Source: Escherichia phage slur02. From it: DNA of 64,000 bases. Below the pieces are notes generated by a model. The model searched no databases, was not told the DNA's origin, and saw only the letters and a list, made by a program, of their open reading frames with translations. This document shows, one piece after another, positions 5,284 to 49,744 of this stretch. Both the position numbers and the translations under genes were made by a program. Position 1 is the stretch's first letter. Every line of letters starts with the position of its first letter. Location of the stretch: sequence record NC_028927.1; one strand, 5' to 3'.

Positions 5284-6849
5284 ATGACTATCAAAACTAA
5301 AGCTGAACTTTTGAACAAATGGAAGCCATTACTGGAAGGTGAAGGTTTACCGGAAATTGCTAATAGCAAACAAGCGATTATCGCTAAAATCTTTGAAAAC
5401 CAGGAAAAAGATTTCCAGACAGCTCCGGAATATAAAGACGAAAAAATTGCTCAGGCATTCGGTTCTTTCTTAACAGAAGCTGAAATTGGTGGTGACCACG
5501 GTTACAATGCTACCAACATCGCTGCAGGTCAGACTTCTGGCGCAGTAACCCAGATTGGCCCGGCTGTTATGGGTATGGTACGTCGTGCTATTCCTAACCT
5601 GATTGCTTTCGATATTTGCGGTGTTCAGCCGATGAACAGCCCGACTGGTCAGGTATTCGCACTGCGCGCAGTATATGGTAAAGACCCAATCGCTTCCGGC
5701 GCTAAAGAAGCATTCCACCCAATGTATGGTCCAGATGCAATGTTCTCTGGTCAGGGTGCTGCTAAGAAATTCGCTGCTTTGAAAGCAAGTGATACTCTTG
5801 AAGTCGGAACTATTTACACTCACTTCTTCCAGGAAACTGGTACAGTATATCTGCAAGCTACAGAAGTTAAACAAATTGATTCAGGCGCATCTGACGCAGA
5901 CAAATTAGATGCTGAAATTAAGAAACAAATGGAAGCTGGTGTACTGGTAGAAATCGCTGAAGGTATGGCTACTTCTATCGCTGAACTTCAGGAAGGTTTT
6001 AACGGTTCTACCGATAACCCATGGAATGAAATGGGCTTCCGTATCGATAAACAAGTTATCGAAGCTAAATCTCGTCAGCTGAAAGCTGCTTACTCTATTG
6101 AATTAGCACAAGACCTTCGCGCTGTTCACGGTATGGATGCTGATGCTGAACTGTCTGGTATTCTGGCTACCGAAATTATGCTGGAAATCAACCGCGAAGT
6201 TGTTGATTGGATTAACTACTCCGCTCAGGTTGGTAAATCTGGTATGACCCTGACTCCGGGTTCTAAAGCTGGTGTATTTGACTTCCAGGACCCAATCGAT
6301 ATTCGTGGTGCTCGCTGGGCAGGTGAATCCTTTAAAGCTCTGTTGTTCCAGATTGACAAAGAAGCAGTTGAAATTGCTCGTCAGACCGGTCGTGGTGAAG
6401 GTAACTTCATTATCGCTTCCCGTAACGTAGTTAACGTTCTGGCTTCAGTTGATACCGGCATTTCTTATGCTGCACAAGGTCTGGCTACCGGCTTTAACAC
6501 TGATACTACCAAGTCAGTATTTGCTGGTGTTCTGGGTGGTAAATACCGTGTATATATCGACCAGTATGCTAAACAGGATTATTTCACTGTAGGTTATAAA
6601 GGTCCGAACGAAATGGATGCTGGTATTTACTATGCTCCATATGTAGCTCTGACTCCGCTGCGTGGTTCCGATCCGAAGAACTTCCAACCGGTAATGGGAT
6701 TCAAAACTCGTTACGGTATCGGTATCAACCCATTTGCAGAATCCGCTGCTCAGGCTCCGGCTTCTCGCATCCAGAGCGGTATGCCTTCTATTCTGAATAG
6801 CCTTGGTAAAAACGCTTACTTCCGCCGTGTATATGTTAAAGGTATCTAA
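5284..6849 (+). CDS. 23: major capsid protein gp23
   Basis: 521 aa, matching T4 gp23 length; strong codon bias; terminator hairpin downstream. Confidence 0.95.
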   Translation: MTIKTKAELLNKWKPLLEGEGLPEIANSKQAIIAKIFENQEKDFQTAPEYKDEKIAQAFGSFLTEAEIGGDHGYNATNIAAGQTSGAVTQIGPAVMGMVRRAIPNLIAFDICGVQPMNSPTGQVFALRAVYGKDPIASGAKEAFHPMYGPDAMFSGQGAAKKFAALKASDTLEVGTIYTHFFQETGTVYLQATEVKQIDSGASDADKLDAEIKKQMEAGVLVEIAEGMATSIAELQEGFNGSTDNPWNEMGFRIDKQVIEAKSRQLKAAYSIELAQDLRAVHGMDADAELSGILATEIMLEINREVVDWINYSAQVGKSGMTLTPGSKAGVFDFQDPIDIRGARWAGESFKALLFQIDKEAVEIARQTGRGEGNFIIASRNVVNVLASVDTGISYAAQGLATGFNTDTTKSVFAGVLGGKYRVYIDQYAKQDYFTVGYKGPNEMDAGIYYAPYVALTPLRGSDPKNFQPVMGFKTRYGIGINPFAESAAQAPASRIQSGMPSILNSLGKNAYFRRVYVKGI

Positions 6850-6864
6850 TCTTTGACGATTTAA

Positions 6865-6890
6865 GGGACCTTCGGGTCCCTTTAGTTGTT
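6865..6890 (+). terminator. rho-independent terminator after gene 23
   Basis: GGGACC-UUCG-GGUCCC hairpin followed by a U-run. Confidence 0.7.
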
Positions 6891-6897
6891 TTTATGG

Positions 6898-6905
6898 TAT
6901 AAATA
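6898..6905 (+). promoter_or_regulatory. late promoter for gene 24
   Basis: Exact TATAAATA 28 bp before the ATG, after the gene 23 terminator. Confidence 0.6.
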
Positions 6906-6932
6906 AATCATATAAACCAAAAGGAAAGCGCA

Positions 6933-8216
6933 ATGGCTAAAATCAACGAACTTCTGCGCGAATCAACCACAACGAATAGCAACTCAATCGGTCGCCCAAA
7001 TCTCGTTGCTTTGACTCGCGCTACCACTAAATTAATATATTCTGACATTGTAGCAACGCAAAGAACTAATCAACCTGTTGCTGCTTTTTATGGTATCAAA
7101 TACCTTAACCCAGACAATGAATTTACATTTAAAACTGGTGCTACTTATGCCGGCGAAGCTGGATATGTAGATCGAGAACAAATCACAGAATTAACAGAAG
7201 AGTCTAAATTAACTCTCAATAAAGGCGATTTATTCAAATATAATAATATCGTTTATAAAGTATTAGAAGATACACCATTTGCTGATATTGAAGAAAGCGA
7301 TTTAGAATTGGCTCTTCAGATTGCAATTGTTCTTTTAAAGGTTCGTCTATTTTCTGACGCAGCGTCAACAAGCAAATTTGAAAGCTCTGATAGTGAAATT
7401 GCGGATGCTAGATTCCAGATTAATAAATGGCAAACCGCAGTTAAATCTCGCAAACTTAAAACTGGTATCACAGTTGAATTAGCACAAGATTTAGAAGCAA
7501 ATGGATTCGATGCTCCTAATTTCTTGGAAGATTTGCTTGCAACTGAAATGGCAGATGAAATCAATAAAGATATTCTGCAGTCTTTGATTACAGTATCAAA
7601 ACGTTATAAAGTTACAGGAATTACTGATACTGGATTCATTGATTTGAGTTATGCATCTGCACCTGAAGCTGGTCGTTCATTATACCGAATGGTATGCGAA
7701 ATGGTTTCGCATATCCAAAAAGAATCAACTTATACAGCAACGTTCTGTGTTGCTTCTGCTCGTGCCGCCGCGATTCTTGCTGCATCAGGTTGGTTAAAAC
7801 ATAAACCAGAAGATGATAAATATCTTTCACAAAATGCCTATGGGTTTTTAGCTAATGGTTTACCACTTTATTGCGATACTAACAGCCCATTAGATTATGT
7901 AATCGTTGGCGTAGTAGAAAATATCGGTGAAAAAGAAATTGTTGGATCAATTTTCTATGCTCCGTATACAGAAGGTCTCGACTTAGATGACCCTGAACAT
8001 GTAGGTGCATTTAAAGTTGTTGTTGATCCAGAAAGCTTGCAACCGTCTATCGGTTTATTAGTTAGATATGCTTTATCTGCAAATCCTTACACCGTAGCAA
8101 AAGATGAAAAAGAAGCAAGAGTAATTGATGGTGGAGACATGGATAAAATGGCGGGTCGTTCAGATTTGTCTGTTTTATTAGGTGTTAAGCTACCAAAAAT
8201 TATCATTGATGAATAA
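6933..8216 (+). CDS. 24: capsid vertex protein gp24
   Basis: 427 aa, gp23 paralog-type sequence with shared motifs such as ELAQDL; late promoter upstream. Confidence 0.9.
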   Translation: MAKINELLRESTTTNSNSIGRPNLVALTRATTKLIYSDIVATQRTNQPVAAFYGIKYLNPDNEFTFKTGATYAGEAGYVDREQITELTEESKLTLNKGDLFKYNNIVYKVLEDTPFADIEESDLELALQIAIVLLKVRLFSDAASTSKFESSDSEIADARFQINKWQTAVKSRKLKTGITVELAQDLEANGFDAPNFLEDLLATEMADEINKDILQSLITVSKRYKVTGITDTGFIDLSYASAPEAGRSLYRMVCEMVSHIQKESTYTATFCVASARAAAILAASGWLKHKPEDDKYLSQNAYGFLANGLPLYCDTNSPLDYVIVGVVENIGEKEIVGSIFYAPYTEGLDLDDPEHVGAFKVVVDPESLQPSIGLLVRYALSANPYTVAKDEKEARVIDGGDMDKMAGRSDLSVLLGVKLPKIIIDE

Positions 8217-11992: not shown

Positions 11993-12610
11993 ATGTACCA
12001 CTTTGTATATGAAACAACAAATCTAATAAATGGTAAAAAGTATATAGGAAAACACTCTACTGATGACTTGAATGATGGTTATCTTGGTTCCGGTAAGGCA
12101 ATTCAGCAGGCTATAAAGAAATATGGTGAAAACAATTTCTCTAGAACAATACTAAAAGAGTTTAAAACTTCCGAAGAAGCGTACATGTATGAAGAAAAAA
12201 TTATAACTCCTGAACTAATAAAAAGCAAAAATTACTATAATATGAAACCTGGTGGAATTGGTGGAATTGTTATGACTACAGATGTTATAGCAAAGATGAA
12301 AGAATCTTCCGCTAAAAGATTTGAAAACTCACCGGGCACGGTATTAGGTAAAACTTGTTATACTAATGGAACTAAAAATATTTTTATTAAACCTGGAGAA
12401 CTTGTTCCAGAAGGATTTGTAAAAGGGATGGTTCATCCTAATAGAAAGTCCAGAAAAGGATGTAAAGTCAAACCGACTACCACAGGAACTTTTTGGGTCA
12501 ATAATGGCGCAATAAATAAATTAATACAACCAGACGGTATTATTCCCGACGGATTTATTAAAGGTCGTCTCATGAAAAGAGATTCTAAAGGCAAATTTAG
12601 TAAGGCATAA
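11993..12610 (+). CDS. GIY-YIG homing endonuclease, Seg family
   Basis: N-terminal GIY-YIG module (YHFVYETTNL...GKKYIGKHS), 205 aa; sits between inh and uvsW where T4 carries a seg gene. Which seg ortholog it is cannot be decided from memory. Confidence 0.8.
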   Translation: MYHFVYETTNLINGKKYIGKHSTDDLNDGYLGSGKAIQQAIKKYGENNFSRTILKEFKTSEEAYMYEEKIITPELIKSKNYYNMKPGGIGGIVMTTDVIAKMKESSAKRFENSPGTVLGKTCYTNGTKNIFIKPGELVPEGFVKGMVHPNRKSRKGCKVKPTTTGTFWVNNGAINKLIQPDGIIPDGFIKGRLMKRDSKGKFSKA

Positions 12611-22997: not shown

Positions 22998-23027
22998 ACT
23001 ATAACACAACATGAGGAACTTGTAAAC
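22998..23027 (-). promoter_or_regulatory. early sigma70-type promoter (-35 GTTTAC, 18-nt spacer, extended -10 TGTTATAGT)
   Basis: Read on the minus strand; -35 overlaps the stop of the alt-like paralog; leader carries GAGGA before the ATG at 22966. Confidence 0.5.
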
Positions 23028-25084
23028 TACATTTTGAACTTTTTAGACATTCCGTTAATGTTAACCAAAGAAGCTAAGATTTGAGAAACTTCGTTTTCCT
23101 CTTCTTTTGATTCTTCTACAAGGAATTGATTAAATCCAGCCATTGGACGAACTTCACCAGTTTCCATTAAATGGTCGCCATCATATACTGATTCTTCTAA
23201 TTGTTCAGAAGGAGGAACGATTGTACCTTCGATTAGATACTTGTTATAAGCAGTTTCTTTCATAAAGTACGTACTTACTTTATTAATCTTCAGTAAAATT
23301 CCACGCGGTAGAATAACTTCAGCTTCTGATGGAAATCCTGTTAAATGACCTGGAACGATAACTTTGATTCGCTCAGCTCCTTTAATTACCATACCCACGC
23401 TAGTTTCAGCATTTTCATTAGCGTATGTAGAATGACTACCCATATGCATCAAATCTTCTGCATCAACAGAACCTTCTCCTTCGCCAGAAAATACTGCGCC
23501 GGAATCATCTAGAGCCATATAGTTTTTACCATGCTCACCGAAGATATTTGGTTTAAGCGATGTAGATACGAAGTTCTTGAAATAGAACATTTTGTTTTCA
23601 ATGTTATGACGCAAAGTTTTAAAGGTAACTTCTTGTCCACGATAAAGCGTAGTTCCTGGAGGAAGAACTGAACCTTTAGCGAATGCAGAATCTAACGTCT
23701 CGATGTGCTTAATAGCTCGTTCCATATATTCTTCACGGGTAGAATCTGGTTTACCCAAAAGGAACGAGTTCATTTCAACATATGAATCTGCACAATAATC
23801 TTCAATTACATCAGATTCAGCTTGAGTTAATCCTTTTGGAGTTACTTCAGTACTTGCATATTCATATGCCTGGGCAGCAGATTCATTAATCAATTTATAA
23901 ATGCCATTCATGACAAATTGAATAATAGCTGTCTTTTCATCTGGCGTGGCTTTAGAACCTTTAACCAAATCATTGATAATTTTCTTAATAACATCAAAGC
24001 TATTAGAAATATTAATATCAGCAAGATCACTTAAAATTTTATCAGTTTTATAATCAAAGAATTCTTTATTCTTTAAATATTCTTGAGAACCTTGATATGT
24101 TATATCGCTCTGCAACTTGATGGATGGATCACGTAAACGTGCATGGGCTAATGCAATATGATTTCGGAAGTTTTCTAGTTCATAATCGCTAGATTTAAAA
24201 CGAGAAGCACTCCTCATACCACCGATAGCTCCTTTGCTGAAGTTTGAACCAATCTGAATAACGCCAGAGTTCATTGGTCCTTCTGCTTTATATACCGGAA
24301 CTTTAGATTCAAACTCTTGATATTTCTTGGCAGCGAAGCTATCACCCTGAAGTGAAGCATCAACAGTAGAATATTGAGCTTGTGCTGCTAATCGACGACT
24401 AATTTTAGTTTTCTGAATAACAGCTTGGTCAGTACGTTTATCATTTTCTAAAGCAATAGAAGCAGCAACAGCGACAGCTTTAGGAACAGCATTACCTGTT
24501 TTAACGTCTACATAAACATCACCAACCTTTGATTCAACTTTTGTGAATAACTCAGTTGAAATAGGAGGTACGCCTGGAATGTCTTCTAAATTGGCATTTT
24601 TACGGTAAACCATAATATATGCATACTTTTTATCATAGTCCCAGATTTCCTTTAAAAGAACATATCGACCTGCTCCTTTAGTACGTACTAAACGGTCAGC
24701 AATAACTTGCATTTGACGAGCAGCGCCATTTGTTTTACTCTTTAGTACGCGGAATAGGCATGCGTCGATTTTATACTGCTTCATTGTTTGAAGAGCAGTA
24801 TCAAAAACAGCACTAATGACGCCAATTGGATTTCCACCCAAGTTTCTAAGCTTAACCAGCGATAATTTCTCGTTGACACCTATCATTACGATATGCATCA
24901 TTTTATCGCCCGGCTTAACGTTTTTATTCGTATCACCGCCAGAGGTGTATGTACAAAATCTAAATCCAGGAAGCACGCTTTCTTCGCCGGCTTGAATAGC
25001 AAAAATTTGTGGTATTTTATGCTTAGGATTTAAGTTAACAACCGGCGCCGAAGCGCCGTCAAATAATTCTGTAATAAGTTCCAT
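23027..25084 (-). CDS. Alt-like ADP-ribosyltransferase paralog (685 aa)
   Basis: N-terminal 230 aa closely similar to the adjacent alt ORF; C-terminal half has R / S-T-S / E-x-E ADP-ribosyltransferase motifs (YRGQ, FVSTSL, SEAEVILP). Confidence 0.85.
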   Translation of the reverse strand: MELITELFDGASAPVVNLNPKHKIPQIFAIQAGEESVLPGFRFCTYTSGGDTNKNVKPGDKMMHIVMIGVNEKLSLVKLRNLGGNPIGVISAVFDTALQTMKQYKIDACLFRVLKSKTNGAARQMQVIADRLVRTKGAGRYVLLKEIWDYDKKYAYIMVYRKNANLEDIPGVPPISTELFTKVESKVGDVYVDVKTGNAVPKAVAVAASIALENDKRTDQAVIQKTKISRRLAAQAQYSTVDASLQGDSFAAKKYQEFESKVPVYKAEGPMNSGVIQIGSNFSKGAIGGMRSASRFKSSDYELENFRNHIALAHARLRDPSIKLQSDITYQGSQEYLKNKEFFDYKTDKILSDLADINISNSFDVIKKIINDLVKGSKATPDEKTAIIQFVMNGIYKLINESAAQAYEYASTEVTPKGLTQAESDVIEDYCADSYVEMNSFLLGKPDSTREEYMERAIKHIETLDSAFAKGSVLPPGTTLYRGQEVTFKTLRHNIENKMFYFKNFVSTSLKPNIFGEHGKNYMALDDSGAVFSGEGEGSVDAEDLMHMGSHSTYANENAETSVGMVIKGAERIKVIVPGHLTGFPSEAEVILPRGILLKINKVSTYFMKETAYNKYLIEGTIVPPSEQLEESVYDGDHLMETGEVRPMAGFNQFLVEESKEEENEVSQILASLVNINGMSKKFKM

Positions 25085-25087
25085 GAT

Positions 25088-27184
25088 TTATCCTTGAACG
25101 AACTTGTAAGGCATGTTTGTAATATCTATGCAAGACGCAATAATTCCAAGAGATGATTCTACTTTCTGTTTAACATTTGATGAAACAAATGATGCAAAGT
25201 CAACTCTGTCTTCTACTTCAATATCACCTGTCATTGCAACTACTTCGCCGGTTTCCATTAGATGGTCACCGTCATAAATTACCGATTCGGTGAGTTCTTC
25301 TGTGGTCATAACTTCAGCTTGAATAAGTTTTGTATTATTAGATGTTGTTCCGTCATTATTAGAAGCATCAGTTATTTTATTAACTTTAACCATCAATCCG
25401 CGCGGTAGAATAACTTCAGCTTCTGTTGCTATTCCGAGACTTCCTGGATATACAACATTAACTTTATGAGCTCCATCAATTGCCCATCCTATTTGAACTT
25501 TAACGTATTCAGGATTTTCTTTATACGCTCTTATTTCGTTTGGATTAATAGTTATTCCTTCTTCATTTTTATCAACTGTTAATTCATTGCGAGCTTCTGG
25601 TTCTAAAAGACCAATACCAGCATGTGTAATTCCAAAACGTCCAAAAATGATAGGAGTTAAAGAAGTAGATACAAAATTTCTGAAATAGAACACTTTATTT
25701 TTAACTAGCGCTTCGTATATAGGAGCAGTCATACTTTGAGCACGATAAACTGTAATGCCTTCCGGTATGCGGTCACCATTTTCAAAAGCTGAATCTAAAT
25801 TATTTATAGCAGATTCAATTTCTTTTTCACTCATTACATCATATCGTTCTGGATTGTAACGACCTAAAAGAAGATTATTGATGTCAGTATATCCTGAACC
25901 ACAATACTCTCTAATGCCGCGCTTTTGTGATGGAGTATATTTAGAACCATCACGGGCAATAGTAATATCAATCATTGGACCTGCACCAATTCCAGAAAAA
26001 CTATAAATCATTCTTTTGAGGAATTTAGTTTTTGCTGCGTTCCAGGAATTTTTAGTTATTTCTTCCCAGACTTCATCTGGTTGTCCTTTACGATTTTTAT
26101 TATGATTAGCAAGCCATTTATCTTTATAATCTTCAAAGAATTGATTTACAGCTGCTGCGTATTTCTCTAAACATTTTATTGAAGTAGTTGGTTCATTTTT
26201 AATTGCATTAAAAATTACTTCTTTAATTTTTTCTGAAACTTCACCGACTTGACTCATTGGAAAGAATTTATAATCATAGTGAAGTTCATCTGCCGTTCCT
26301 TCAGCAATAATTTTTGCTGCCTTAGTTTTAGAAGCTAATGAATTAATTCCAAGCTTCATTTCTTCTGCTTCGGGAATTAAAGGAGCGGTAGCAGGTTTAT
26401 TGAAATTAGCTGCGGTAGATTCATACTTCTGGAATAATTCACTTTCAAATCTAGAAGATTCCAATGACTGACTTTGCGCAATTGCTCTACGTGAAATTTT
26501 AACTTTAACGATTACAGCTTGGTCAGAACGTTTATCATTTTCTTGCGCAATAGATGCTGCAATTGCCTCATTTTTAGTTACTTGAGCTCCAGTATCTTTA
26601 TTGATATAAACATCACCGACCTTCGATTCAACTTTAGTAAAGAGCTCGGTACTAATTTCCGGAACCCCTGGAATGTCTTCTAGTGATACATTTTTGCGAT
26701 GTATAAGAATATATGCATACTTTTTATCGTAATCCCAGAGTTCCTTAAGAAGGACGTATCTGCCACCTGAACGACTACGGATAAGTCTATCAGCAATAAC
26801 TTGAATTTGTCGAGCTTGACCAGCGGTTTTAGACTTAAGAATACGGAGCATACAAGCATCAATTTTATATTGACGCATTGTTTGCATTGCAACAGTAAAA
26901 ACTGAATTGATATAATTAATTGGGCTTGGACCAAGACCTTTCAATTTAGCAATTGAACCTTTAGCAGTTAATGTAAAAGGAACAATATGCATCATTTTAT
27001 CGCCCATTTTTAAATCGCGATTAGTATCACCTCCAGATGTATAGGTACATAAACGAAAGCCTGGTTGTTCAATTGCATCATCAACATGAACTGAAAAAAT
27101 TTGTGGTATTTTCTTCTTTGGGTTTAAGTTTGTAATCGGAAGAGTAGTATCTTCGTCAAATAATTCTGTAATGAGTTCCATCAT
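25088..27184 (-). CDS. alt: Alt, capsid-packaged ADP-ribosyltransferase (698 aa)
   Basis: Alt-type N-terminus MELITELFDEDTTLP...; ADP-ribosyltransferase motifs YRAQ, FVSTSL, EAEVILP; adjacent to gene 30 as in T4. Confidence 0.85.
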   Translation of the reverse strand: MMELITELFDEDTTLPITNLNPKKKIPQIFSVHVDDAIEQPGFRLCTYTSGGDTNRDLKMGDKMMHIVPFTLTAKGSIAKLKGLGPSPINYINSVFTVAMQTMRQYKIDACMLRILKSKTAGQARQIQVIADRLIRSRSGGRYVLLKELWDYDKKYAYILIHRKNVSLEDIPGVPEISTELFTKVESKVGDVYINKDTGAQVTKNEAIAASIAQENDKRSDQAVIVKVKISRRAIAQSQSLESSRFESELFQKYESTAANFNKPATAPLIPEAEEMKLGINSLASKTKAAKIIAEGTADELHYDYKFFPMSQVGEVSEKIKEVIFNAIKNEPTTSIKCLEKYAAAVNQFFEDYKDKWLANHNKNRKGQPDEVWEEITKNSWNAAKTKFLKRMIYSFSGIGAGPMIDITIARDGSKYTPSQKRGIREYCGSGYTDINNLLLGRYNPERYDVMSEKEIESAINNLDSAFENGDRIPEGITVYRAQSMTAPIYEALVKNKVFYFRNFVSTSLTPIIFGRFGITHAGIGLLEPEARNELTVDKNEEGITINPNEIRAYKENPEYVKVQIGWAIDGAHKVNVVYPGSLGIATEAEVILPRGLMVKVNKITDASNNDGTTSNNTKLIQAEVMTTEELTESVIYDGDHLMETGEVVAMTGDIEVEDRVDFASFVSSNVKQKVESSLGIIASCIDITNMPYKFVQG

Positions 27185-38875: not shown

Positions 38876-40463
<1,588 letters not shown>

Positions 40464-40471
40464 AATAAAAT

Positions 40472-40485
40472 GGGCCTTGCGGCCC
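40472..40485 (-). terminator. hairpin between nrdB stop and denA start (terminator or attenuator)
   Basis: GGGCC-GCAA-GGCCC followed by AUUUUAUUAUG, which includes the denA start codon. Confidence 0.5.
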
Positions 40486-40490
40486 ACTCC

Positions 40491-41669
40491 TTAAAAATAT
40501 TTTTTAAAACTCATCATAACTTTATCATCAACGTCATTATCAATCTGTGCTACAAGATAAGATGACAGTTCTACTTCTTGCGGCGCGGATTGAACATTAT
40601 CAGAATTAAGATATTCACGAATCCAAGGATATGGATGTTTAACCGGAGCATCGGTAATTGGGCATGGAAGACCACACTGTTTCATACGAGATACAGTTAA
40701 GTAATCAATAAAGCTCCACATGCTATTTGTATTTAATCCAGGAACATCGCCATCTTTAAATAAATGAACTGCCCAATCTTTTTCTTGGCGGTTAACTTCC
40801 ATGAAAATATCAACTGCTTCTTGTTCACACTCTTTGGCAATTTTAACCCATTCATCACCATCCGTGCCAAGTTGAAGTTGACGAATAATATATTGTGTAC
40901 CTTTAAGATGAAGCTGCTCATCACGTGCAATGAACTTCATAATCTTGGCATTACCTTCCATGATTTCCATGTTCTTATGGAAGTTAAAGGTACATGCGAA
41001 AGATACATAAAAACGAATAGCTTCCAATGCGTTGATTACGTGTAGGCAGAGGTAAAGAGAGCGCATTAGTTCACGTTTCCAATACATTTCATGCTCTATG
41101 GCATCTTTAATATCATCTTCGTCTGCATTAATTTCTTTTTGGTATTCGATATCAGCTTTAGCGTTTTCCCAATAACGAGTTTTAATCAGAACATCATCAT
41201 AATAACGTCCAATGGATTCAGCACGTTTCATAATAGCTTCATCTAATACAATTTCATCAAATACCTTCGATGGATCAGTATAAAGATTTCGCATGATATG
41301 TGTATATGAACGACTGTGAATAGTTTCACTAAAAGTCCATGTAGCAACCCATGTATCAAGACTTGGGTCTGAAATTAACGACATAAGTACAGCAGATGGT
41401 GCACGACCCTGAATGCTATCCAAAAGTGATTGATACTTCAGGTTATTAGTAAAAATATCTTGCTGATATTGAGGAAGCTTGTTAAATTGCGCAGCATCCA
41501 TCATTAAGTTTACTTCTTCGGGACGCCAAAAAAATGATAAAGATTTCTCAATAAGTTCTTCAAATACTCTATGTCGTTGAATATCATATCGAGCTAAACC
41601 CAATCCAGAACCAAAAAACATCGGCTCAGTCAAAATATTAACAGGGGATGTATTAAAAACTGTACTCAT
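40491..41669 (-). CDS. nrdB: ribonucleotide reductase small subunit, uninterrupted
   Basis: 392 aa continuous ORF with ferritin-like di-iron features; no intron-sized interruption. Confidence 0.9.
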   Translation of the reverse strand: MSTVFNTSPVNILTEPMFFGSGLGLARYDIQRHRVFEELIEKSLSFFWRPEEVNLMMDAAQFNKLPQYQQDIFTNNLKYQSLLDSIQGRAPSAVLMSLISDPSLDTWVATWTFSETIHSRSYTHIMRNLYTDPSKVFDEIVLDEAIMKRAESIGRYYDDVLIKTRYWENAKADIEYQKEINADEDDIKDAIEHEMYWKRELMRSLYLCLHVINALEAIRFYVSFACTFNFHKNMEIMEGNAKIMKFIARDEQLHLKGTQYIIRQLQLGTDGDEWVKIAKECEQEAVDIFMEVNRQEKDWAVHLFKDGDVPGLNTNSMWSFIDYLTVSRMKQCGLPCPITDAPVKHPYPWIREYLNSDNVQSAPQEVELSSYLVAQIDNDVDDKVMMSFKKYF

Positions 41670-42307
41670 TTAGAATCCTTAAATTTACATTTATCATAAT
41701 GCCATCTTAAAGCATTGCCTTTATTAACTTTCTTGCCACAATGCGGACAAGGCGGATACTCTGTACCTTGCTTAGTTCTCAAAGAAATCAAATCACGGGT
41801 TTCTTTAGTATGAGGAACATCTCTTGTCGGAGAGATTGTACCATACATCGGATTAAGCACGCCGACTTTAGCAGCAGCTATATTCTTTTTAGCTTCTTCG
41901 GTTTTAGGTTTTCTCATGCGAGCTAAATGCTCTTTGGTAAATTTCCTTCCTTTAAGGGCTCTACTTATCTTTTCTCTGGTTTCCATAGAAACTTCACGTC
42001 CTGTAGCAGCTTCAGATAAACGTCGTCTACCTAATTCGTACAGTTGAGAAGAAATTTTATATGAGCGATTTTTACCAGTCAAGCACATTAAACCAAAAGC
42101 TTTCTTTAATCCTGGGGTGTCATATATTTTACATAAAAGCCAATGAGCTATAAAATGCTCTCTACCTGTTAATTCAACTAAATTTTCTTTATCATCAGAA
42201 CCTCCCATACATCTAGGGATTATATGATGTGTCTCTTTATATTCAGATAAAGGTTCCCGAGCCTGAGCTCGGGAAATTAGGTCATTATAGATTTTTTGAT
42301 AATTCAT
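41666..42307 (-). CDS. mobE: HNH homing endonuclease (MobE-like)
   Basis: 213 aa; HNH motif HHIIPRCMGGSDDKENLVELTGREHFIAHW; lies exactly between nrdA and nrdB. Confidence 0.8.
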   Translation of the reverse strand: MNYQKIYNDLISRAQAREPLSEYKETHHIIPRCMGGSDDKENLVELTGREHFIAHWLLCKIYDTPGLKKAFGLMCLTGKNRSYKISSQLYELGRRRLSEAATGREVSMETREKISRALKGRKFTKEHLARMRKPKTEEAKKNIAAAKVGVLNPMYGTISPTRDVPHTKETRDLISLRTKQGTEYPPCPHCGKKVNKGNALRWHYDKCKFKDSK

Positions 42308-44571
42308 TACAATTTACACGCTGCACAATCTTCAGCTTTTGGAGTTTCTATTTCATAATCATCAGTACCAGAACCATCGCGGGTATTATGATAATAGAAA
42401 TTTTTTCCGCCAAAATACCAAAAATACAAAAGGTCATCAATCATTATTGACATTGGAACCTTGCCTTTAGGGAAGATTTGGGGGTCATAGTATGTATTCG
42501 CCGAAGCTGATTGACAAACCCATTTCAGCATAATAGCTACCTGCGTAAGATAAGGTTTATTACCTTTCTTAGCTAATTTCCATGTATAGTCGTAAAGGTC
42601 TATGTTATGCTCAATATTGGGCACGACTTGATTAAAGGAGCCCTCTTTTGATTCTTTAACAGAGACTGGTCCACGTGGAGGCTCGATACCGTTTGTACTG
42701 TTAGAAACTTGGGAAGATGACTCACATGGCATAAGTGCTGATAATGTGCTATTACGGATGCCAAAGAGCTTAAGGTCTTCCCGCAGCGACGACCAGTCAC
42801 AAACGTATTTTGGAGCTGCGATTTGGTCAATCTTTTTATTGTACCAGTCGATAGGTAATTCGCCTCGAGACCAACGAGTGTCTGAATAATATTCGCAAGG
42901 TCCTTTTTCTTTGGCGAGCTTAATGGATGCTTTAATGAGTCCATACTGTAATCTCTCAAATAGTTCATGTGTTAAATCGTTAGCATCTTCATAAGAAGCA
43001 AAGTTACTTGCCAGCCAAGCTGCATAGTTAGTAACACCTACACCAAGGTTTCGACGCTTTTTAGCTTTTTCTGCTTCAGGAACTGGATATCCTTGGTAAT
43101 CCAAAAGATTATCAAGAGCACGAACTTGAACTTCTGCTAATTCATTAATTTTATCTTGGTCTTGCCAATCGAAGTTATCCAGCACAAATGCAGATAACGT
43201 GCACAATCCAATTTCAGCATCAGGGCTATTCACATCATTTGTTGGAATAGCAATTTCACAGCACAAGTTACTCTGACGAATAGGTGCCTTTTCACGAATA
43301 AACGGAGTATAGTTATTCGTATTATCAATGAACTGCACATAAATCCTTGCTGTTCCTGAGCGTTCAGTCATGAGCAATTCAAATAGTTCACGGGCTTTAA
43401 TACGCTTTTTGCGAATATTAGGGTCTTTTTCTGCTGCTTCGTATAATTCACGGAAACGGTCTTGGTCTTTAAAATAAGAATAATAAAGCTCGCCACCCAT
43501 TTCATGCGGACTGAACAAAGTAATGTAGTCGTTCTTTCCAAAACGTTCCATCATTAGATCATTCAGTTGAACACCATAATCCATATGACGAATGCGGTTT
43601 TCTTCTACACCTTTGTTATTTTTCAAAACAAGAAGATTTTCAACTTCCAAATGCCAAATAGGATAATAAGCAGTAGCAGCGCCGCCACGAATTCCACCTT
43701 GTGAGCATGATTTAACAGCAGTCTGAAAATGTTTCCAAAAAGGAATAACACCAGTATGGCGTACTTCACCCATGCCAATCTTAGAACCTTCGGCACGAAT
43801 CATACCAACGTTAATACCAATTCCAGCACGTTTGGAGATATATTCAACAATTGAAGCGGAAGCCTTATTGATAGACTTTAATGAATCACCTGCCTCAATA
43901 ACAACACATGAACTAAACTGTCGAGTCGGAGTACGACAACCAGCCATAATAGGAGTTGGTAATGAAATCTGTCGAGTAGATACTGCTTCATAAAAACGGA
44001 TAACGTGTTTTAATCTATCAACAGGTTCATCTTGATGCAGTGCCATTCCAATAGTCATAAATGCAAACTGTGGAGTTTCATAAATTTGACCAGTGGTTTT
44101 ATCTTTAACTAAATATTTTTCTTTTAATTGCATCGCCCCGGAATAAGTAAATTCCATATCCCGCTCGTGCTTAATTTTTGATTCTAAAAATGTAATTTCT
44201 TCTGCTGAATATTTTGACAATAATTCAGGGTCATATTTACCTGCATTTACACAATAAGAAATATGGTCAATAAATGAACGTGGTTCATACTGCCCATAAA
44301 CATGCTTACGAAGAGCAAACATTAAACAGCGTGCAGCTACATATTGATAATCAGGCTCTTCAACCGAAATAGAATTCGCAGCAGCCTTAATGACAATAGT
44401 CTGAATATCATCAGTTGTCATTCCATCACGGAGATAAGATTTAATATTTTCATATAATTCATAAGGATCTACTGATGTTCCTTCAGCTGCCCAAGATAAA
44501 ACTTTAATAATTTTTTGTGGGTCAAAGCTCTGAGAAACACCACTACTTTTGATAACATTAATTAATTGCAT
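42307..44571 (-). CDS. nrdA: ribonucleotide reductase large subunit
   Basis: 754 aa; class Ia large-subunit features including the C-terminal Cys pair. Confidence 0.95.
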   Translation of the reverse strand: MQLINVIKSSGVSQSFDPQKIIKVLSWAAEGTSVDPYELYENIKSYLRDGMTTDDIQTIVIKAAANSISVEEPDYQYVAARCLMFALRKHVYGQYEPRSFIDHISYCVNAGKYDPELLSKYSAEEITFLESKIKHERDMEFTYSGAMQLKEKYLVKDKTTGQIYETPQFAFMTIGMALHQDEPVDRLKHVIRFYEAVSTRQISLPTPIMAGCRTPTRQFSSCVVIEAGDSLKSINKASASIVEYISKRAGIGINVGMIRAEGSKIGMGEVRHTGVIPFWKHFQTAVKSCSQGGIRGGAATAYYPIWHLEVENLLVLKNNKGVEENRIRHMDYGVQLNDLMMERFGKNDYITLFSPHEMGGELYYSYFKDQDRFRELYEAAEKDPNIRKKRIKARELFELLMTERSGTARIYVQFIDNTNNYTPFIREKAPIRQSNLCCEIAIPTNDVNSPDAEIGLCTLSAFVLDNFDWQDQDKINELAEVQVRALDNLLDYQGYPVPEAEKAKKRRNLGVGVTNYAAWLASNFASYEDANDLTHELFERLQYGLIKASIKLAKEKGPCEYYSDTRWSRGELPIDWYNKKIDQIAAPKYVCDWSSLREDLKLFGIRNSTLSALMPCESSSQVSNSTNGIEPPRGPVSVKESKEGSFNQVVPNIEHNIDLYDYTWKLAKKGNKPYLTQVAIMLKWVCQSASANTYYDPQIFPKGKVPMSIMIDDLLYFWYFGGKNFYYHNTRDGSGTDDYEIETPKAEDCAACKL

Positions 44572-44888
44572 AAGTCCTCAACTTGAAAATCGTCTTTAAA
44601 CAATCGGTTAACTATATGAGCTATTATATCACCATGACACGGCTTTGGTTTACATGTGCATCCTAGCCTCATTCCACGTAAAGGCTCTAAATGTGCTTTA
44701 GTTATTTCTCCGGATTTAATTCGACGTATAAAATCTTTTTTGAATAATTCAATGGCAGCCTCCCGGCTGCCAGCATCTTTACCGACGTGATTTCCCCAAA
44801 ATGTACCGCGGTGAATATTAACATCAAAGTCGGATTTGTATTTATTCACTACCCGGCATAGACGGCCCGGTTGGTAATAATTCTTCAT
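44562..44888 (-). CDS. hypothetical protein (nrdA.1-like)
   Basis: 108 aa ORF overlapping the nrdA start. Confidence 0.6.
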
Positions 44889-45105
44889 ATTGTTTTTCCG
44901 TTAATACAGTAATATCATAGTAACAATCGGAAGAAGTTTTAACTGTGGAAATTTTATTGTCAAAATACTCACGAGTCATTTTATGAGTATAGTATTTTTT
45001 ACCATAAATGGTAATAGGCTGTTCTGGTCCTGGAACTTCTAACTCGCTTGGGTTAGGAAGTGTAAAAAGAACGGCACCAGAAGTATCTTTAAATCGTAAA
45101 ATCAT
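44842..45105 (-). CDS. hypothetical protein (nrdA.2-like)
   Basis: 87 aa. Confidence 0.55.
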
Positions 45106-45962
45106 ATTGCCATTTTCCCTTTAATTGCTGGATGCGATTCATAATTTTCAAGGATAAAATCTTTCGGTTTCATGTATTCAGTTAACCAGTAAAGCTGTGT
45201 TTCGGTGTCACAATTTCCAAACTCTATAGGCCAATCAATTTTAAGTTCACACAGTTCTTTAGGCTCACGACGTAAAATTTCTTTACATTGCTCAGTATGA
45301 TTCATATAGATGTGAGTATTACCACCAGAAAATATCAAATCTCCTGGGATAAGATTACACATCTTAGCCACAATATGCGTCAAGGCAGCGTACGAGGCAA
45401 TGTTGAATGGCAAGCCCAAGAAAACATCTACACTTCTTTGGTACCATTGTAAATCAAGATAACCATTACGCACATTAAACTGATAGAACATATGACAGGG
45501 CGGTAATGCCATTTGATTGATTTCAGCTGGATTCCATGCTGAAACGATTTGACGTCGATCAGTTGGTAATTTTTTAATACGATCAATAGTTTCAACTAAT
45601 TGATCCACACCACCGAAATCACGCCATTGTTTACCGTATATAGGACCAAGTTCACCACTATGATATCCTAGGTCTTTAGCCTGGTTTTCATAGTTATCGT
45701 CCCAAATAGTTTTACCTTGAATAAGACTACCATGAGTGCGAAGACGTAAATCATTAACATTGGTAGAACCGGAAATAAACCATAAAAGCTCAGCAACGCA
45801 TGCATTCCAGGCGAGCTTCTTAGTTGTTACTGCAGGAAAACCTTTGGTTAAATCCCAACGCAATTTAGTACCGAACAGAGCAATTGTTCCTGTGCCCGTT
45901 CGGTCATCGGTTTCATAGCCATTTTCAAAAATGTCTTTAATTAAATCTTGGTATTGTTTCAT
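45102..45962 (-). CDS. td: thymidylate synthase, uninterrupted (no group I intron)
   Basis: 286 aa continuous ORF with the active-site region [11 protein letters not shown]. Confidence 0.95.
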
Positions 45963-46006
45963 TTAGTACCTTATATAAATTATAATACATTTTATGAAGC
46001 TAATAA

Positions 46007-46354
46007 TTAATACGGTTTAGCATCAAATTTTCTCTCAATTTCAGGCGTGAAATATAATTCTTTACCGCGTTTGGAAAAGCGACCAATAATATGATAATTA
46101 TTCTCATCAAACGTAATATTACCAATATCCATAGCTTTCAACCAAATATCGATATTTCTATCCAGCTTTATGTCAAAATTCCAATACGGAGAACTATTAC
46201 CGAAAATACTACAAGCGGATTCAGTGAAACAGCTACTATAAATCTTGTCTTTAGGAACTACTAATTGATAGACACCTTTAATAAACTGAGGACCTTGCCA
46301 TTTTGGCTGTTTCTCGTCTTTTTCTAATAGAATAGGGTAATAATTAAAATTCAT
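46007..46354 (-). CDS. hypothetical protein inserted between frd and td
   Basis: 115 aa ORF with no recognisable motif. Confidence 0.6.
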   Translation of the reverse strand: MNFNYYPILLEKDEKQPKWQGPQFIKGVYQLVVPKDKIYSSCFTESACSIFGNSSPYWNFDIKLDRNIDIWLKAMDIGNITFDENNYHIIGRFSKRGKELYFTPEIERKFDAKPY

Positions 46355-46373
46355 ATTTCCGCCACGCGTTATT

Positions 46374-47200
<827 letters not shown>

Positions 47201-47211
47201 ATTATCTCCTA

Positions 47212-47544
47212 TTAAAAAGGATCAGGAACATATCCGCTAGCTTTAATCATTTTAATTAACGTTAACATTCCTTTGTTAACTGCTCGTGAGATTTCATCAA
47301 AAACTTCATCACTAAAAAGTTCTAACACGCCCTTCTGAACTTTTAATTTACAGCCAACAATTTCTTCATCGCCTATAGTAAATTCATTACCACCAATTCC
47401 ACCGAAAAACTTAATTACACCAGTTAACTGTCTTCCACGAGAATATGGGTCGTGTGATAAAGTAATATGAGTCACCCCGGGTACAGTTTTAAATTGGCAG
47501 CGAATATTTACTTGTGAAATTCCAGTTACATGAATATCAGACAT
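47212..47544 (-). CDS. hypothetical protein (frd.2-like)
   Basis: 110 aa. Confidence 0.6.
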   Translation of the reverse strand: MSDIHVTGISQVNIRCQFKTVPGVTHITLSHDPYSRGRQLTGVIKFFGGIGGNEFTIGDEEIVGCKLKVQKGVLELFSDEVFDEISRAVNKGMLTLIKMIKASGYVPDPF

Positions 47545-49645: not shown

Positions 49646-49744
49646 TTTTATTTCCTTTTTAATTTAATTAACAGTTGGTGCTATGACGATGTATGACCTC
49701 ATAGCTGGTCAGTGAGATAATTATAATCTATTTATAATAAGCAA

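Follow-up and report, generated by a model that had tools for sequence, protein, structure and literature searches.

The window, a stretch of 64,000 nucleotides that we analyzed as a whole, is 100% identical at the nucleotide level to Escherichia phage slur04 (Tequatrovirus), and we refer to it by that name. We are highly confident that the region described here is the standard frd-td-nrdA.2-nrdA.1-nrdA-mobE-nrdB-denA block, with intronless td and nrdB genes and an HNH gene that is the T6 allele of mobE, and with the proposed homing history and td-intron recipient status set out below. On the minus strand, it contains a gene for thymidylate synthase (td, 45102..45962, a continuous reading frame of 286 amino acids and an RB14-type allele), nrdA.2 (DUF5496, 44842..45105) and nrdA.1 (DUF4326, 44562..44888), both assigned by Pfam and positioned as in T4, and a gene for the large subunit of class Ia ribonucleotide reductase (nrdA, 42307..44571, 754 amino acids). 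These are followed by mobE (41666..42307), a T6-type allele that encodes a free-standing homing endonuclease of 213 amino acids with HNH and NUMOD3 domains, nrdB (40491..41669, a continuous reading frame of 392 amino acids whose 5' end is of T6 type and whose sequence from about nt 180 is mostly of T2 type), and denA for endonuclease II (40053..40487). The coordinates that the initial annotation gave for the region (40491-45962) are exact. The configuration of the locus is common, deposited and already described in the T-even literature, and nothing in it is new.

The td product matches the whole Pfam Thymidylat_synt profile (1-266/266, E=9e-96) and the nrdB product matches Ribonuc_red_sm (E=3.6e-36). 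Both genes align colinearly with the spliced forms of the T4 genes and have no non-coding insertion at the known insertion sites. Relative to slur04, T4 has a 1017-nt insertion after td nt 549 (MAFFT alignment) and a 598-nt insertion after nrdB nt 664, in agreement with the earlier statement that T4 has introns in both. The literature value for the length of the T4 td intron is 1016 nt. A search of the entire window against Rfam at gathering thresholds gave zero matches. At E<=10, the interval 40000-46500 gave no group I intron, just seven sub-threshold matches to unrelated families. The annotation of td and nrdB as intron-free, with no ribozyme fold hidden in the reading frames, is therefore upheld.

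Intronless td and nrdB are the majority state in the database for the T4-like group: about 200-260 records have the td intron and about 120-190 have the nrdB intron, versus about 680 records that bear td. In slur04 the exons at both insertion sites are naive, of RB14 type in td and of T2 type in nrdB, and exon comparison revealed no T4-like co-conversion scar around either site. Both genes are naive intronless alleles, never invaded or fully reset.

The gene between nrdA and nrdB was first described as MobE-like and is a true MobE. Its product matches the Pfam families HNH (residues 21-44, E=3.3e-5) and NUMOD3 (E=1.1e-8) as well as phrog_655, "homing endonuclease" (E=3e-67), and it is 100% identical in amino acid sequence to T6 MobE (AY262134.2) over 213 amino acids. 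A sequence search against solved structures gave nothing at E<=0.01. The HNH residues are present (HH at 27-28, N42 and H51), as is a C-terminal DNA-binding module with NUMOD3 repeats and a conserved Cys/His tail. Residues 1-55 and 131-213 nearly match T4-type MobE; the central linker is diverged and 19 residues shorter overall, of which 17 form a single gap at the place of one NUMOD3-like repeat of the T4 type. The C-terminal 83 amino acids differ by one residue from the T4-type MobE of RB55. We rejected assignment of this reading frame as Hef or as a fusion of two T4 genes (mobE and nrdB.1). The split in the T4 reference results from two single-base insertions that RB55 does not have, which makes the full-length protein the normal form of MobE.

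Placement exactly at the nrdA-nrdB junction is also borne out: the mobE reading frame overlaps the nrdA stop codon by one base (TAATGA) and the nrdB start codon by four (ATGA). Across T-even phages, T6 has MobE at the same insertion point, T2 is without mobE, and T4 has a MobE with a divergent linker. The 3' part of mobE contains a TGCTTA motif followed after 13 nt by TACAAT (41835..41859, minus strand), the only exact match in the window and within a stretch that is conserved with T4. We take the motif to be a MotA box from its resemblance to the consensus, and infer a candidate MotA-type middle promoter for nrdB inside mobE. At the 5' end of mobE there is a predicted intrinsic terminator hairpin (42254..42275, minus strand) with a 9-bp stem, a 4-nt loop and a short T tract. 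In the alignment this stretch is almost identical to that of T4, where the hairpin terminates about 30-50% of transcripts (PMC2790892). The overlap of the mobE start with the nrdA stop (UAAUGA) is also known from T4 (PMC2988022).

Two further genes of the window encode GIY-YIG proteins. The gene that the initial annotation placed near uvsW as a seg gene is segE (11993..12610, plus strand), a free-standing GIY-YIG homing endonuclease gene that lies between inh and uvsW, directly upstream of the latter and in the same position as in T4. Its product matches SegE_GIY-YIG and is identical to T4 SegE at 204/205 residues (99.5%). The GIY-YIG reading frame immediately downstream of nrdB was considered as a seg homing endonuclease and rejected: it is DenA (endonuclease II), in a T4-like position and with a match to phrog_1111 (E=2.2e-65). 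This frame has 144 amino acids (40053-40487), and the annotated start gives 136 (40053-40463). The denA product has a GIY-YIG fold and is not a homing endonuclease. Over the interval of the window, T4 also has segD, I-TevIII, I-TevI and segG, and slur04 has none of the four. The initial annotation's view of the region as a snapshot of its selfish elements is a fair reading.

Wilson and Edgell reported in 2009 where MobE lies, its internal terminator and the target that it nicks in nrdB (PMC2790892). Strand-specific nicking of mobE-less nrdB and non-Mendelian inheritance were shown for the T4 allele only, the one allele examined in vivo, and endonuclease activity was not detected in vitro (PMC2790892). 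The nick maps to nt 122-126 of T2 nrdB, and the polymorphic region to nt 114-131 (PMC2790892). By extension from the T4 protein, slur04 mobE would be transcribed from promoters upstream of nrdA, on which T4 mobE depends (PMC2790892); its translation would be coupled to the nrdA stop codon and its expression damped by the internal terminator. In a mixed infection, MobE may nick the 5' part of nrdB (around nt 122-126) in mobE-less phages, and repair templated by the mobE+ genome would copy mobE and short flanks into the recipient. SegE, beside uvsW, works in the same general way, via a double-strand break.

The slur04 locus contains a mosaic that may be the trace left by such a transfer. The first 35 informative sites of nrdB (nt 6 to below 180) are all T6-type and the later ones mostly T2-type; the last five informative sites of nrdA, from nt 2248, are T6-type. 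Informative sites thus delimit a T6-type tract of about 0.83 kb (41491..42324, minus strand) that includes nrdA from nt 2248, mobE, and nrdB nt 1 to about 179, and a sliding identity profile agrees with these limits. The switch from T6 to T2 type in nrdB is sharp and falls between about nt 141 and nt 180, which places it 15-55 nt past the nick site known from the literature. At the positions that correspond to the MobE nick region (nrdB nt 114-131, 41539..41556, minus strand), slur04 has the T6-type haplotype, with AAA at codon 42; its sequence here equals that of T6 and is unlike that of T2. Every one of the 34 database records that have the T6-type mobE middle has the T6-type 5'-nrdB haplotype as well. 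Because the first 180 nt or so of slur04 nrdB carry the mobE-linked polymorphisms, the gene is presumably protected from its own MobE. In laboratory T4 x T2 progeny that were mobE+ and I-TevIII-, the recombination point lay in the first 189 nt of nrdB (PMC2790892). The T6-type tract, followed by mostly T2-like nrdB, looks like a homing footprint, in which the direction and age of the recombination are not readable from the sequence.

Other histories were weighed against homing. In any case, slur04 nrdA is pieced together from T2-like and T6-like segments, so ordinary homologous recombination could have produced an identical picture if the protected haplotype was also selected for. It is very unlikely that mobE is an inactive or domesticated remnant that is no longer mobile and is kept, for example, only for the nrdB promoter. 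In the view of Wilson and Edgell, selection disfavors deletion of mobE because the gene contains the nrdB middle promoter, and their failure to detect activity in vitro would fit a remnant (PMC2790892). However, the reading frame is intact at 213 amino acids with its HNH residues, and the allele-specific middle of mobE is 97.6-100% identical at the nucleotide level in 30/34 records and 96.4% in the other four. That mobE is always found with the nrdB 5' haplotype that matches it implies that selection against self-nicking continues. We consider it equally improbable that an ancestor of slur04 had introns in td, nrdB or both, lost them, and kept mobE. Lutter, KarlGJung, G2540 and T6, which are close relatives (96-97% identity across this region), carry the td intron, and recombination with an intronless allele could in principle remove an intron precisely. 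Yet a T4-like co-conversion patch marks phages that have gained the intron, as in Lutter at td nt 505-555, and slur04 is native RB14-type there; its nrdB is T2-like around the insertion site. The intronless state is that of the majority, and T6, with an identical mobE, also has an intron-free nrdB. The initial annotation had presented the endonuclease as retained in spite of the missing introns, and this part of it is not supported, since MobE is independent of introns and no scar of a former intron was found.

The td gene of slur04 is about 78% identical at the nucleotide level to the T4 and T2 alleles, about 80% to that of T6 and 96% to the Lutter exons (MAFFT alignment). About 100 database records carry td of this RB14 type at 95% identity or more. 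The equivalent of the I-TevI homing site (td nt 520-569, positions -30..+20) is at 45394..45443 on the minus strand, with the insertion point between 45414 and 45413. I-TevI recognizes a 5'-CNNNG-3' motif of which C1 and G5 are required (PMC5009752) and cuts 23 and 25 nt upstream of the insertion site. In slur04 the motif is CAAAG (td nt 523-527, 45440-45436), with C1 and G5 kept, and its position matches. The td gene of Lutter consists of the slur04-type allele, the intron and a T4-like tract of about 50 nt. Exon differences between Lutter and slur04 lie mainly in the patch at nt 505-555, which includes both the I-TevI cut site and the insertion site, and 12/14 differing sites in it match T4. 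The RB14-type allele has thus probably been invaded by the td intron in nature.

From the critical C and G, kept at the right distance, and from the probable invasion of this allele in Lutter, we infer that I-TevI would cut slur04 td and that the phage should take up the td intron when crossed. It is unlikely, though less so than the two histories rejected above, that this td is an escape allele that I-TevI cannot cut, in which case td would show no marker exclusion. The site has 13 mismatches to intron-deleted T4 between -30 and +20, of which six fall within -1..+12 in the binding region (-1, +1, +3, +6, +9 and +12), and the central triplet of the motif is changed from that of T4 (CAACG to CAAAG). 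Not every CNNNG triplet is cleaved by I-TevI and many variants are poor substrates; the text of the same paper has no data on the quality of CAAAG (PMC5009752). Against an escape allele, C1 and G5 are at the correct spacing, I-TevI tolerates many substitutions, T2 is the classical recipient with six mismatches in the same span, and in Lutter this same allele contains the intron together with a short T4-like tract over the cut site, which indirectly supports binding.

The equivalent of the nrdB-intron (I-TevIII) homing site (positions -40..+25) is at 40969..41033 on the minus strand, with the insertion point between 40994 and 40993. It has five mismatches to intron-deleted T4 (-38, -35, -32, -5 and -2) and T2 has four; T4 I-TevIII is annotated as defective. 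The T4 nrdB intron moves only through nicking by MobE (PMC2790892), and slur04 has the mobE-linked haplotype at the nick site, so exclusion of nrdB markers in a slur04 x T4 cross is doubtful. The predicted marker exclusion in crosses with intron-containing phages is thus plausible for td, with the motif kept and Lutter invaded, and doubtful for nrdB versus T4.

It is quite improbable, if a little less so than a remnant mobE or past intron loss, that T6-type and T4-type MobE are competing alleles with different spacing or target preferences, each able to nick the nrdB of the other's host and neither protecting against the other. The linker, in which the two proteins mainly differ, the NUMOD3-like repeat missing from the T6 type and the locked nrdB haplotypes (K-S-L versus R-Q-I at codons 42-44) suggest that the two might compete. 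If they do, the competition would resemble that between the intron endonucleases of SPO1 and SP82.

Beyond bookkeeping the locus has little value, given the deposited slur04 genome and the named T6 MobE allele. It has modest value as a clean illustration from nature of two textbook processes. One is a mobE cassette whose co-converted flanks are short and whose linked target-site haplotype is presumably protective. For the other, slur04 and Lutter form a before and after pair for invasion of the RB14-type td allele by the td intron, and the locus helps to predict which markers are excluded in crosses of slur04 with T4 or T2.

Among known systems, the nrdA-mobE-nrdB locus of T6 (AY262134.2; MH550421) shares with slur04 the identical MobE, its insertion point, an intron-free nrdB and the haplotype of nrdB nt 1 to about 179. 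T6 differs in having a td intron with I-TevI in a T4/T2-like allele, where slur04 td is intronless and RB14-type, and the remainder of slur04 nrdB is mostly T2-like rather than T6-like. T4 MobE (PMC2790892) has the same position between nrdA and nrdB, the TAATGA overlap, the internal hairpin, a nearly identical N-terminal HNH domain (first 55 or so amino acids) and the C-terminal 83 amino acids. Its overall identity to slur04 MobE is 72%, and the slur04 linker is diverged and shorter by 19 residues, with a largest gap of 17. T4 also has an nrdB intron downstream of mobE, which slur04 is without, and encodes R-Q-I at nrdB codons 42-44 where slur04 encodes K-S-L. T2 shares with slur04 the intronless td and nrdB, and slur04 nrdB from about nt 180 is 92-100% identical to it in most 60-nt windows; T2 differs in being without mobE and in its T4-like td (95.5%), to which the divergent slur04 allele is about 78% identical. 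The mobE+ I-TevIII- progeny of the laboratory T4 x T2 cross (PMC2790892) resemble slur04 in having mobE and a donor-type start of nrdB (less than 189 nt) followed by T2 sequence. One of them switched near nrdA nt 2237-2242, and slur04 is T6-type from nrdA nt 2248 at the latest. Unlike these progeny, slur04 is a natural isolate, and its donor type is T6-like, not T4.

The td-nrdB block of slur04, the phage of this window, lies entirely on the minus strand and contains nrdB (40491-41669, 392 aa), an HNH ORF that we identify as mobE (41666-42307, 213 aa, with Pfam HNH and NUMOD3 matches), nrdA (42307-44571, 754 aa), nrdA.1 (44562-44888, 108 aa), nrdA.2 (44842-45105, 87 aa), and td (45102-45962, 286 aa). 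These positions are those of the initial annotation, and Pfam upholds the gene assignments. The 6-kb query (40000-46000) matches Escherichia phages slur04, slur11, and slur13 (LN881729 / NC_042130, Tequatrovirus; record position minus 81684 gives the window position) at 100% identity and many further T-even phages at 94-98%. Immediately downstream of nrdB, a GIY-YIG ORF (40053-40487) encodes DenA/endonuclease II and is not a seg gene.

The spliced exons of T4 (NC_000866) are colinear with both td and nrdB of slur04, which bears out the description of these two genes as intron-free. Relative to slur04, T4 has an insertion of 1017 nt after td nt 549 in our alignment (the td intron is 1016 nt in the literature) and another of 598 nt after nrdB nt 664. 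A Rfam scan at E<=10 found no group I intron match, and no intron-like RNA in td or nrdB, across 40000-46500, and the entire 64-kb window had no Rfam matches at gathering thresholds. The initial annotation had called the endonuclease gene "retained" beside these genes. That word and the contrast it implies are unsupported, because neither gene carries a scar of a past intron and MobE is independent of the introns.

The predicted MobE-like HNH gene at the nrdA-nrdB junction encodes the T6 MobE sequence (AY262134.2), with 100% identity across all 213 residues (tblastn). The Lutter protein follows at 98%, and the T4-type MobE of RB55 at 72% (tblastn). T4-type MobE is near-identical to slur04 MobE in the first ~55 residues, which hold the HNH motif, and in the last 83, whereas the central linker has diverged and has a net loss of 19 residues in slur04. 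Its largest gap (17 residues) falls at one NUMOD3-like repeat of T4-type MobE. The T4 reference has a 141 aa mobE and an 83 aa nrdB.1, while RB55 mobE is one 232-aa ORF. The split is due to two 1-nt insertions in T4 (NC_000866 5717-6417, alignment columns 351 and 438) relative to the RB55 locus (301-999), and probably reflects an artefact of sequencing or annotation, or else a frameshift of that laboratory strain. The long single ORF, as in slur04, is therefore the normal form.

The mobE ORF overlaps both neighbours, with its start codon across the nrdA stop (TAATGA) and its stop codon across the nrdB start (ATGA). Within mobE is a terminator hairpin (42275-42254, 9-bp stem, 4-nt loop); the same hairpin inside T4 mobE is a functional terminator (Wilson and Edgell, PMC2790892). 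The conserved 3′ part of the gene contains a MotA-box-like motif (41859-41835; TGCTTA, 13 nt, TACAAT). The nrdB middle promoter has been placed in the 3′ part of mobE (PMC2790892), and we infer this motif to be a candidate for it.

T4 MobE relies on promoters that lie upstream of nrdA, makes a strand-specific nick in T2 nrdB at nt 122-126, and is inherited at about twice the input frequency of mobE, carrying along its flanks, including the defunct nrdB intron of T4 (PMC2790892). Polymorphisms at nrdB nt 114-131 in mobE-containing phages are thought to stop self-nicking (PMC2790892). By analogy with T4, the T6-type MobE of slur04 would act in the same way.

An alignment of nrdB from slur04, T2 (without mobE), T4, T6, and Lutter reveals what looks like the footprint of such an exchange. 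The first ~120 nt of slur04 nrdB, with the nick region among them (AAA-TCT-TTA at codons 42-44), are 100% T6-type, and from about nt 180 on the gene is predominantly T2-type. Of the 152 sites that distinguish T2 from T6, slur04 has the T6 base at every one of the first 35 (nt 6 to <180) and the T2 base at most of the later ones. At the other end, the final five informative sites of nrdA (from nt 2248) are T6-type, in a gene that is anyway a mosaic of T2-like and T6-like stretches. Because the 5′ nrdB sites and the last nrdA sites are T6-type, the T6-type tract spans ~0.83 kb (window ~41491-42324), mobE with minimal flanks. The sequence does not show which way the exchange went or how old it is. 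The allele-specific middle of T6-type mobE matches 34 records of the phage database at >=96% identity, and the T6-type 5′-nrdB haplotype matches 40 at >=94%, including 34/34 of the mobE-middle records; the next-nearest haplotypes are those of U5 (91.7%) and T4 (89.4%). Such close linkage is expected from self-protection. Aplg8 (KT184308/NC_054902) and SCS4 (ON506924) have the T6-type 5′-nrdB haplotype and are absent among 35 records that match the T6-type mobE middle; they may carry a different mobE allele or have lost the gene.

Tequatrovirus td is strongly dimorphic, and slur04 has the RB14-type allele (a divergent form), found in about 100 records at >=95% identity; most td-bearing records (>500) fall in the 80-90% band. 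Nucleotide identity of slur04 td across the full MAFFT alignment is ~78% to T4 and T2 and ~80% to T6 (83% in BLAST local segments), compared to 95-100% for the flanking genes. The last ~140 nt have just 42-65% identity to T2, T4, and T6 in 60-nt windows. The I-TevI cleavage motif is CAAAG instead of CAACG; both of its critical bases, C1 and G5, are preserved and correctly spaced from the insertion point. Across -30..+20, slur04 has 13 mismatches to intron-deleted T4 versus 6 for T2, the classical td-intron recipient. The td allele of Lutter is also of this kind (overall identity 96.3%, and 100% in most windows), and it contains the td intron. Differences between the two phages across the 3′ half of td are almost confined to nt 505-555 (-45..+6); Lutter has the T4 base at 12 of the 14 sites that differ there. 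This T4-like patch covers the I-TevI cut site and the insertion site, and is the co-conversion scar to be expected from I-TevI homing into an RB14-type allele. Given such a scar in the same allele, slur04 is probably a competent td-intron recipient. Another 14 sites differ between Lutter and slur04 at td nt 85-282, with Lutter matching T4 or T6 at most of them; these could represent a further, discontinuous patch of conversion or slur04-specific variation.

At the nrdB insertion point (-40..+25), slur04 has five mismatches to intron-deleted T4 (-38, -35, -32, -5, -2) and T2 has four. I-TevIII, whose cut sites lie 14 and 16 bp upstream, is intact only in RB3-like phages. The T4 nrdB intron is mobile only through MobE nicking (PMC2790892), and slur04 already has the mobE-linked nick-site haplotype, so the case for the predicted marker exclusion at nrdB, when slur04 is crossed with T4, is weak.

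Several small ORFs vary near this block. A 115-aa ORF of unknown function between frd and td (46007-46354, minus strand; phrog_1928, no Pfam match) is found in T2, T6, and Lutter and not in T4, where frd and td overlap. Between frd and frd.1 (46955-47544, minus strand) are two ORFs of 81 aa (phrog_3183) and 110 aa (DUF7247); T2 has only the first and T4 a 71-bp gap alone, making this a variable mini-region. Elsewhere, a tandem pair (23027-25084 and 25088-27181, minus strand) is annotated as Alt-like RNA polymerase ADP-ribosyltransferases, where T4 presumably has a single alt gene.

The seg gene reported near uvsW is segE (11993-12610, plus strand), with 204/205 identity to T4 SegE and the same inh/uvsW position as in T4. 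Over the interval covered by the window, T4 has segD, segE, I-TevIII, mobE, I-TevI, and segG, and slur04 has only segE and mobE. The gene 23/24 gap (6849-6933, 83 bp) and the gene 32/59 gap (~49646-49744, ~100 bp), occupied in T4 by segD and segG, are empty.

The original observation is thus confirmed in full and its identification was essentially right; the locus is a configuration already deposited and explained. The td intron of T4 matches 260 records (197 with >=80% coverage) and the nrdB intron 191 (118 with >=80% coverage, some outside Tequatrovirus), compared to about 680 for td itself and about 125 for MobE of either allele at >=60% amino acid identity. Fully colinear loci with intronless td, intronless nrdB, and mobE occur in at least six distinct phages besides slur04/11/13, among them AdolfPortmann, FL08, FelixPlatter, KAW1E185, and Ge15. 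In the review literature T4 is an outlier with 15 homing endonucleases, and free-standing homing endonucleases are more widespread than intron-encoded ones. To this slur04 adds, with Lutter, a before-and-after pair for td-intron invasion, and a natural mobE co-conversion footprint. The latter matches laboratory T4 x T2 crosses, in which mobE+ I-TevIII- progeny recombined within nrdB nt 1-189, and one of them near nrdA nt 2237-2242.
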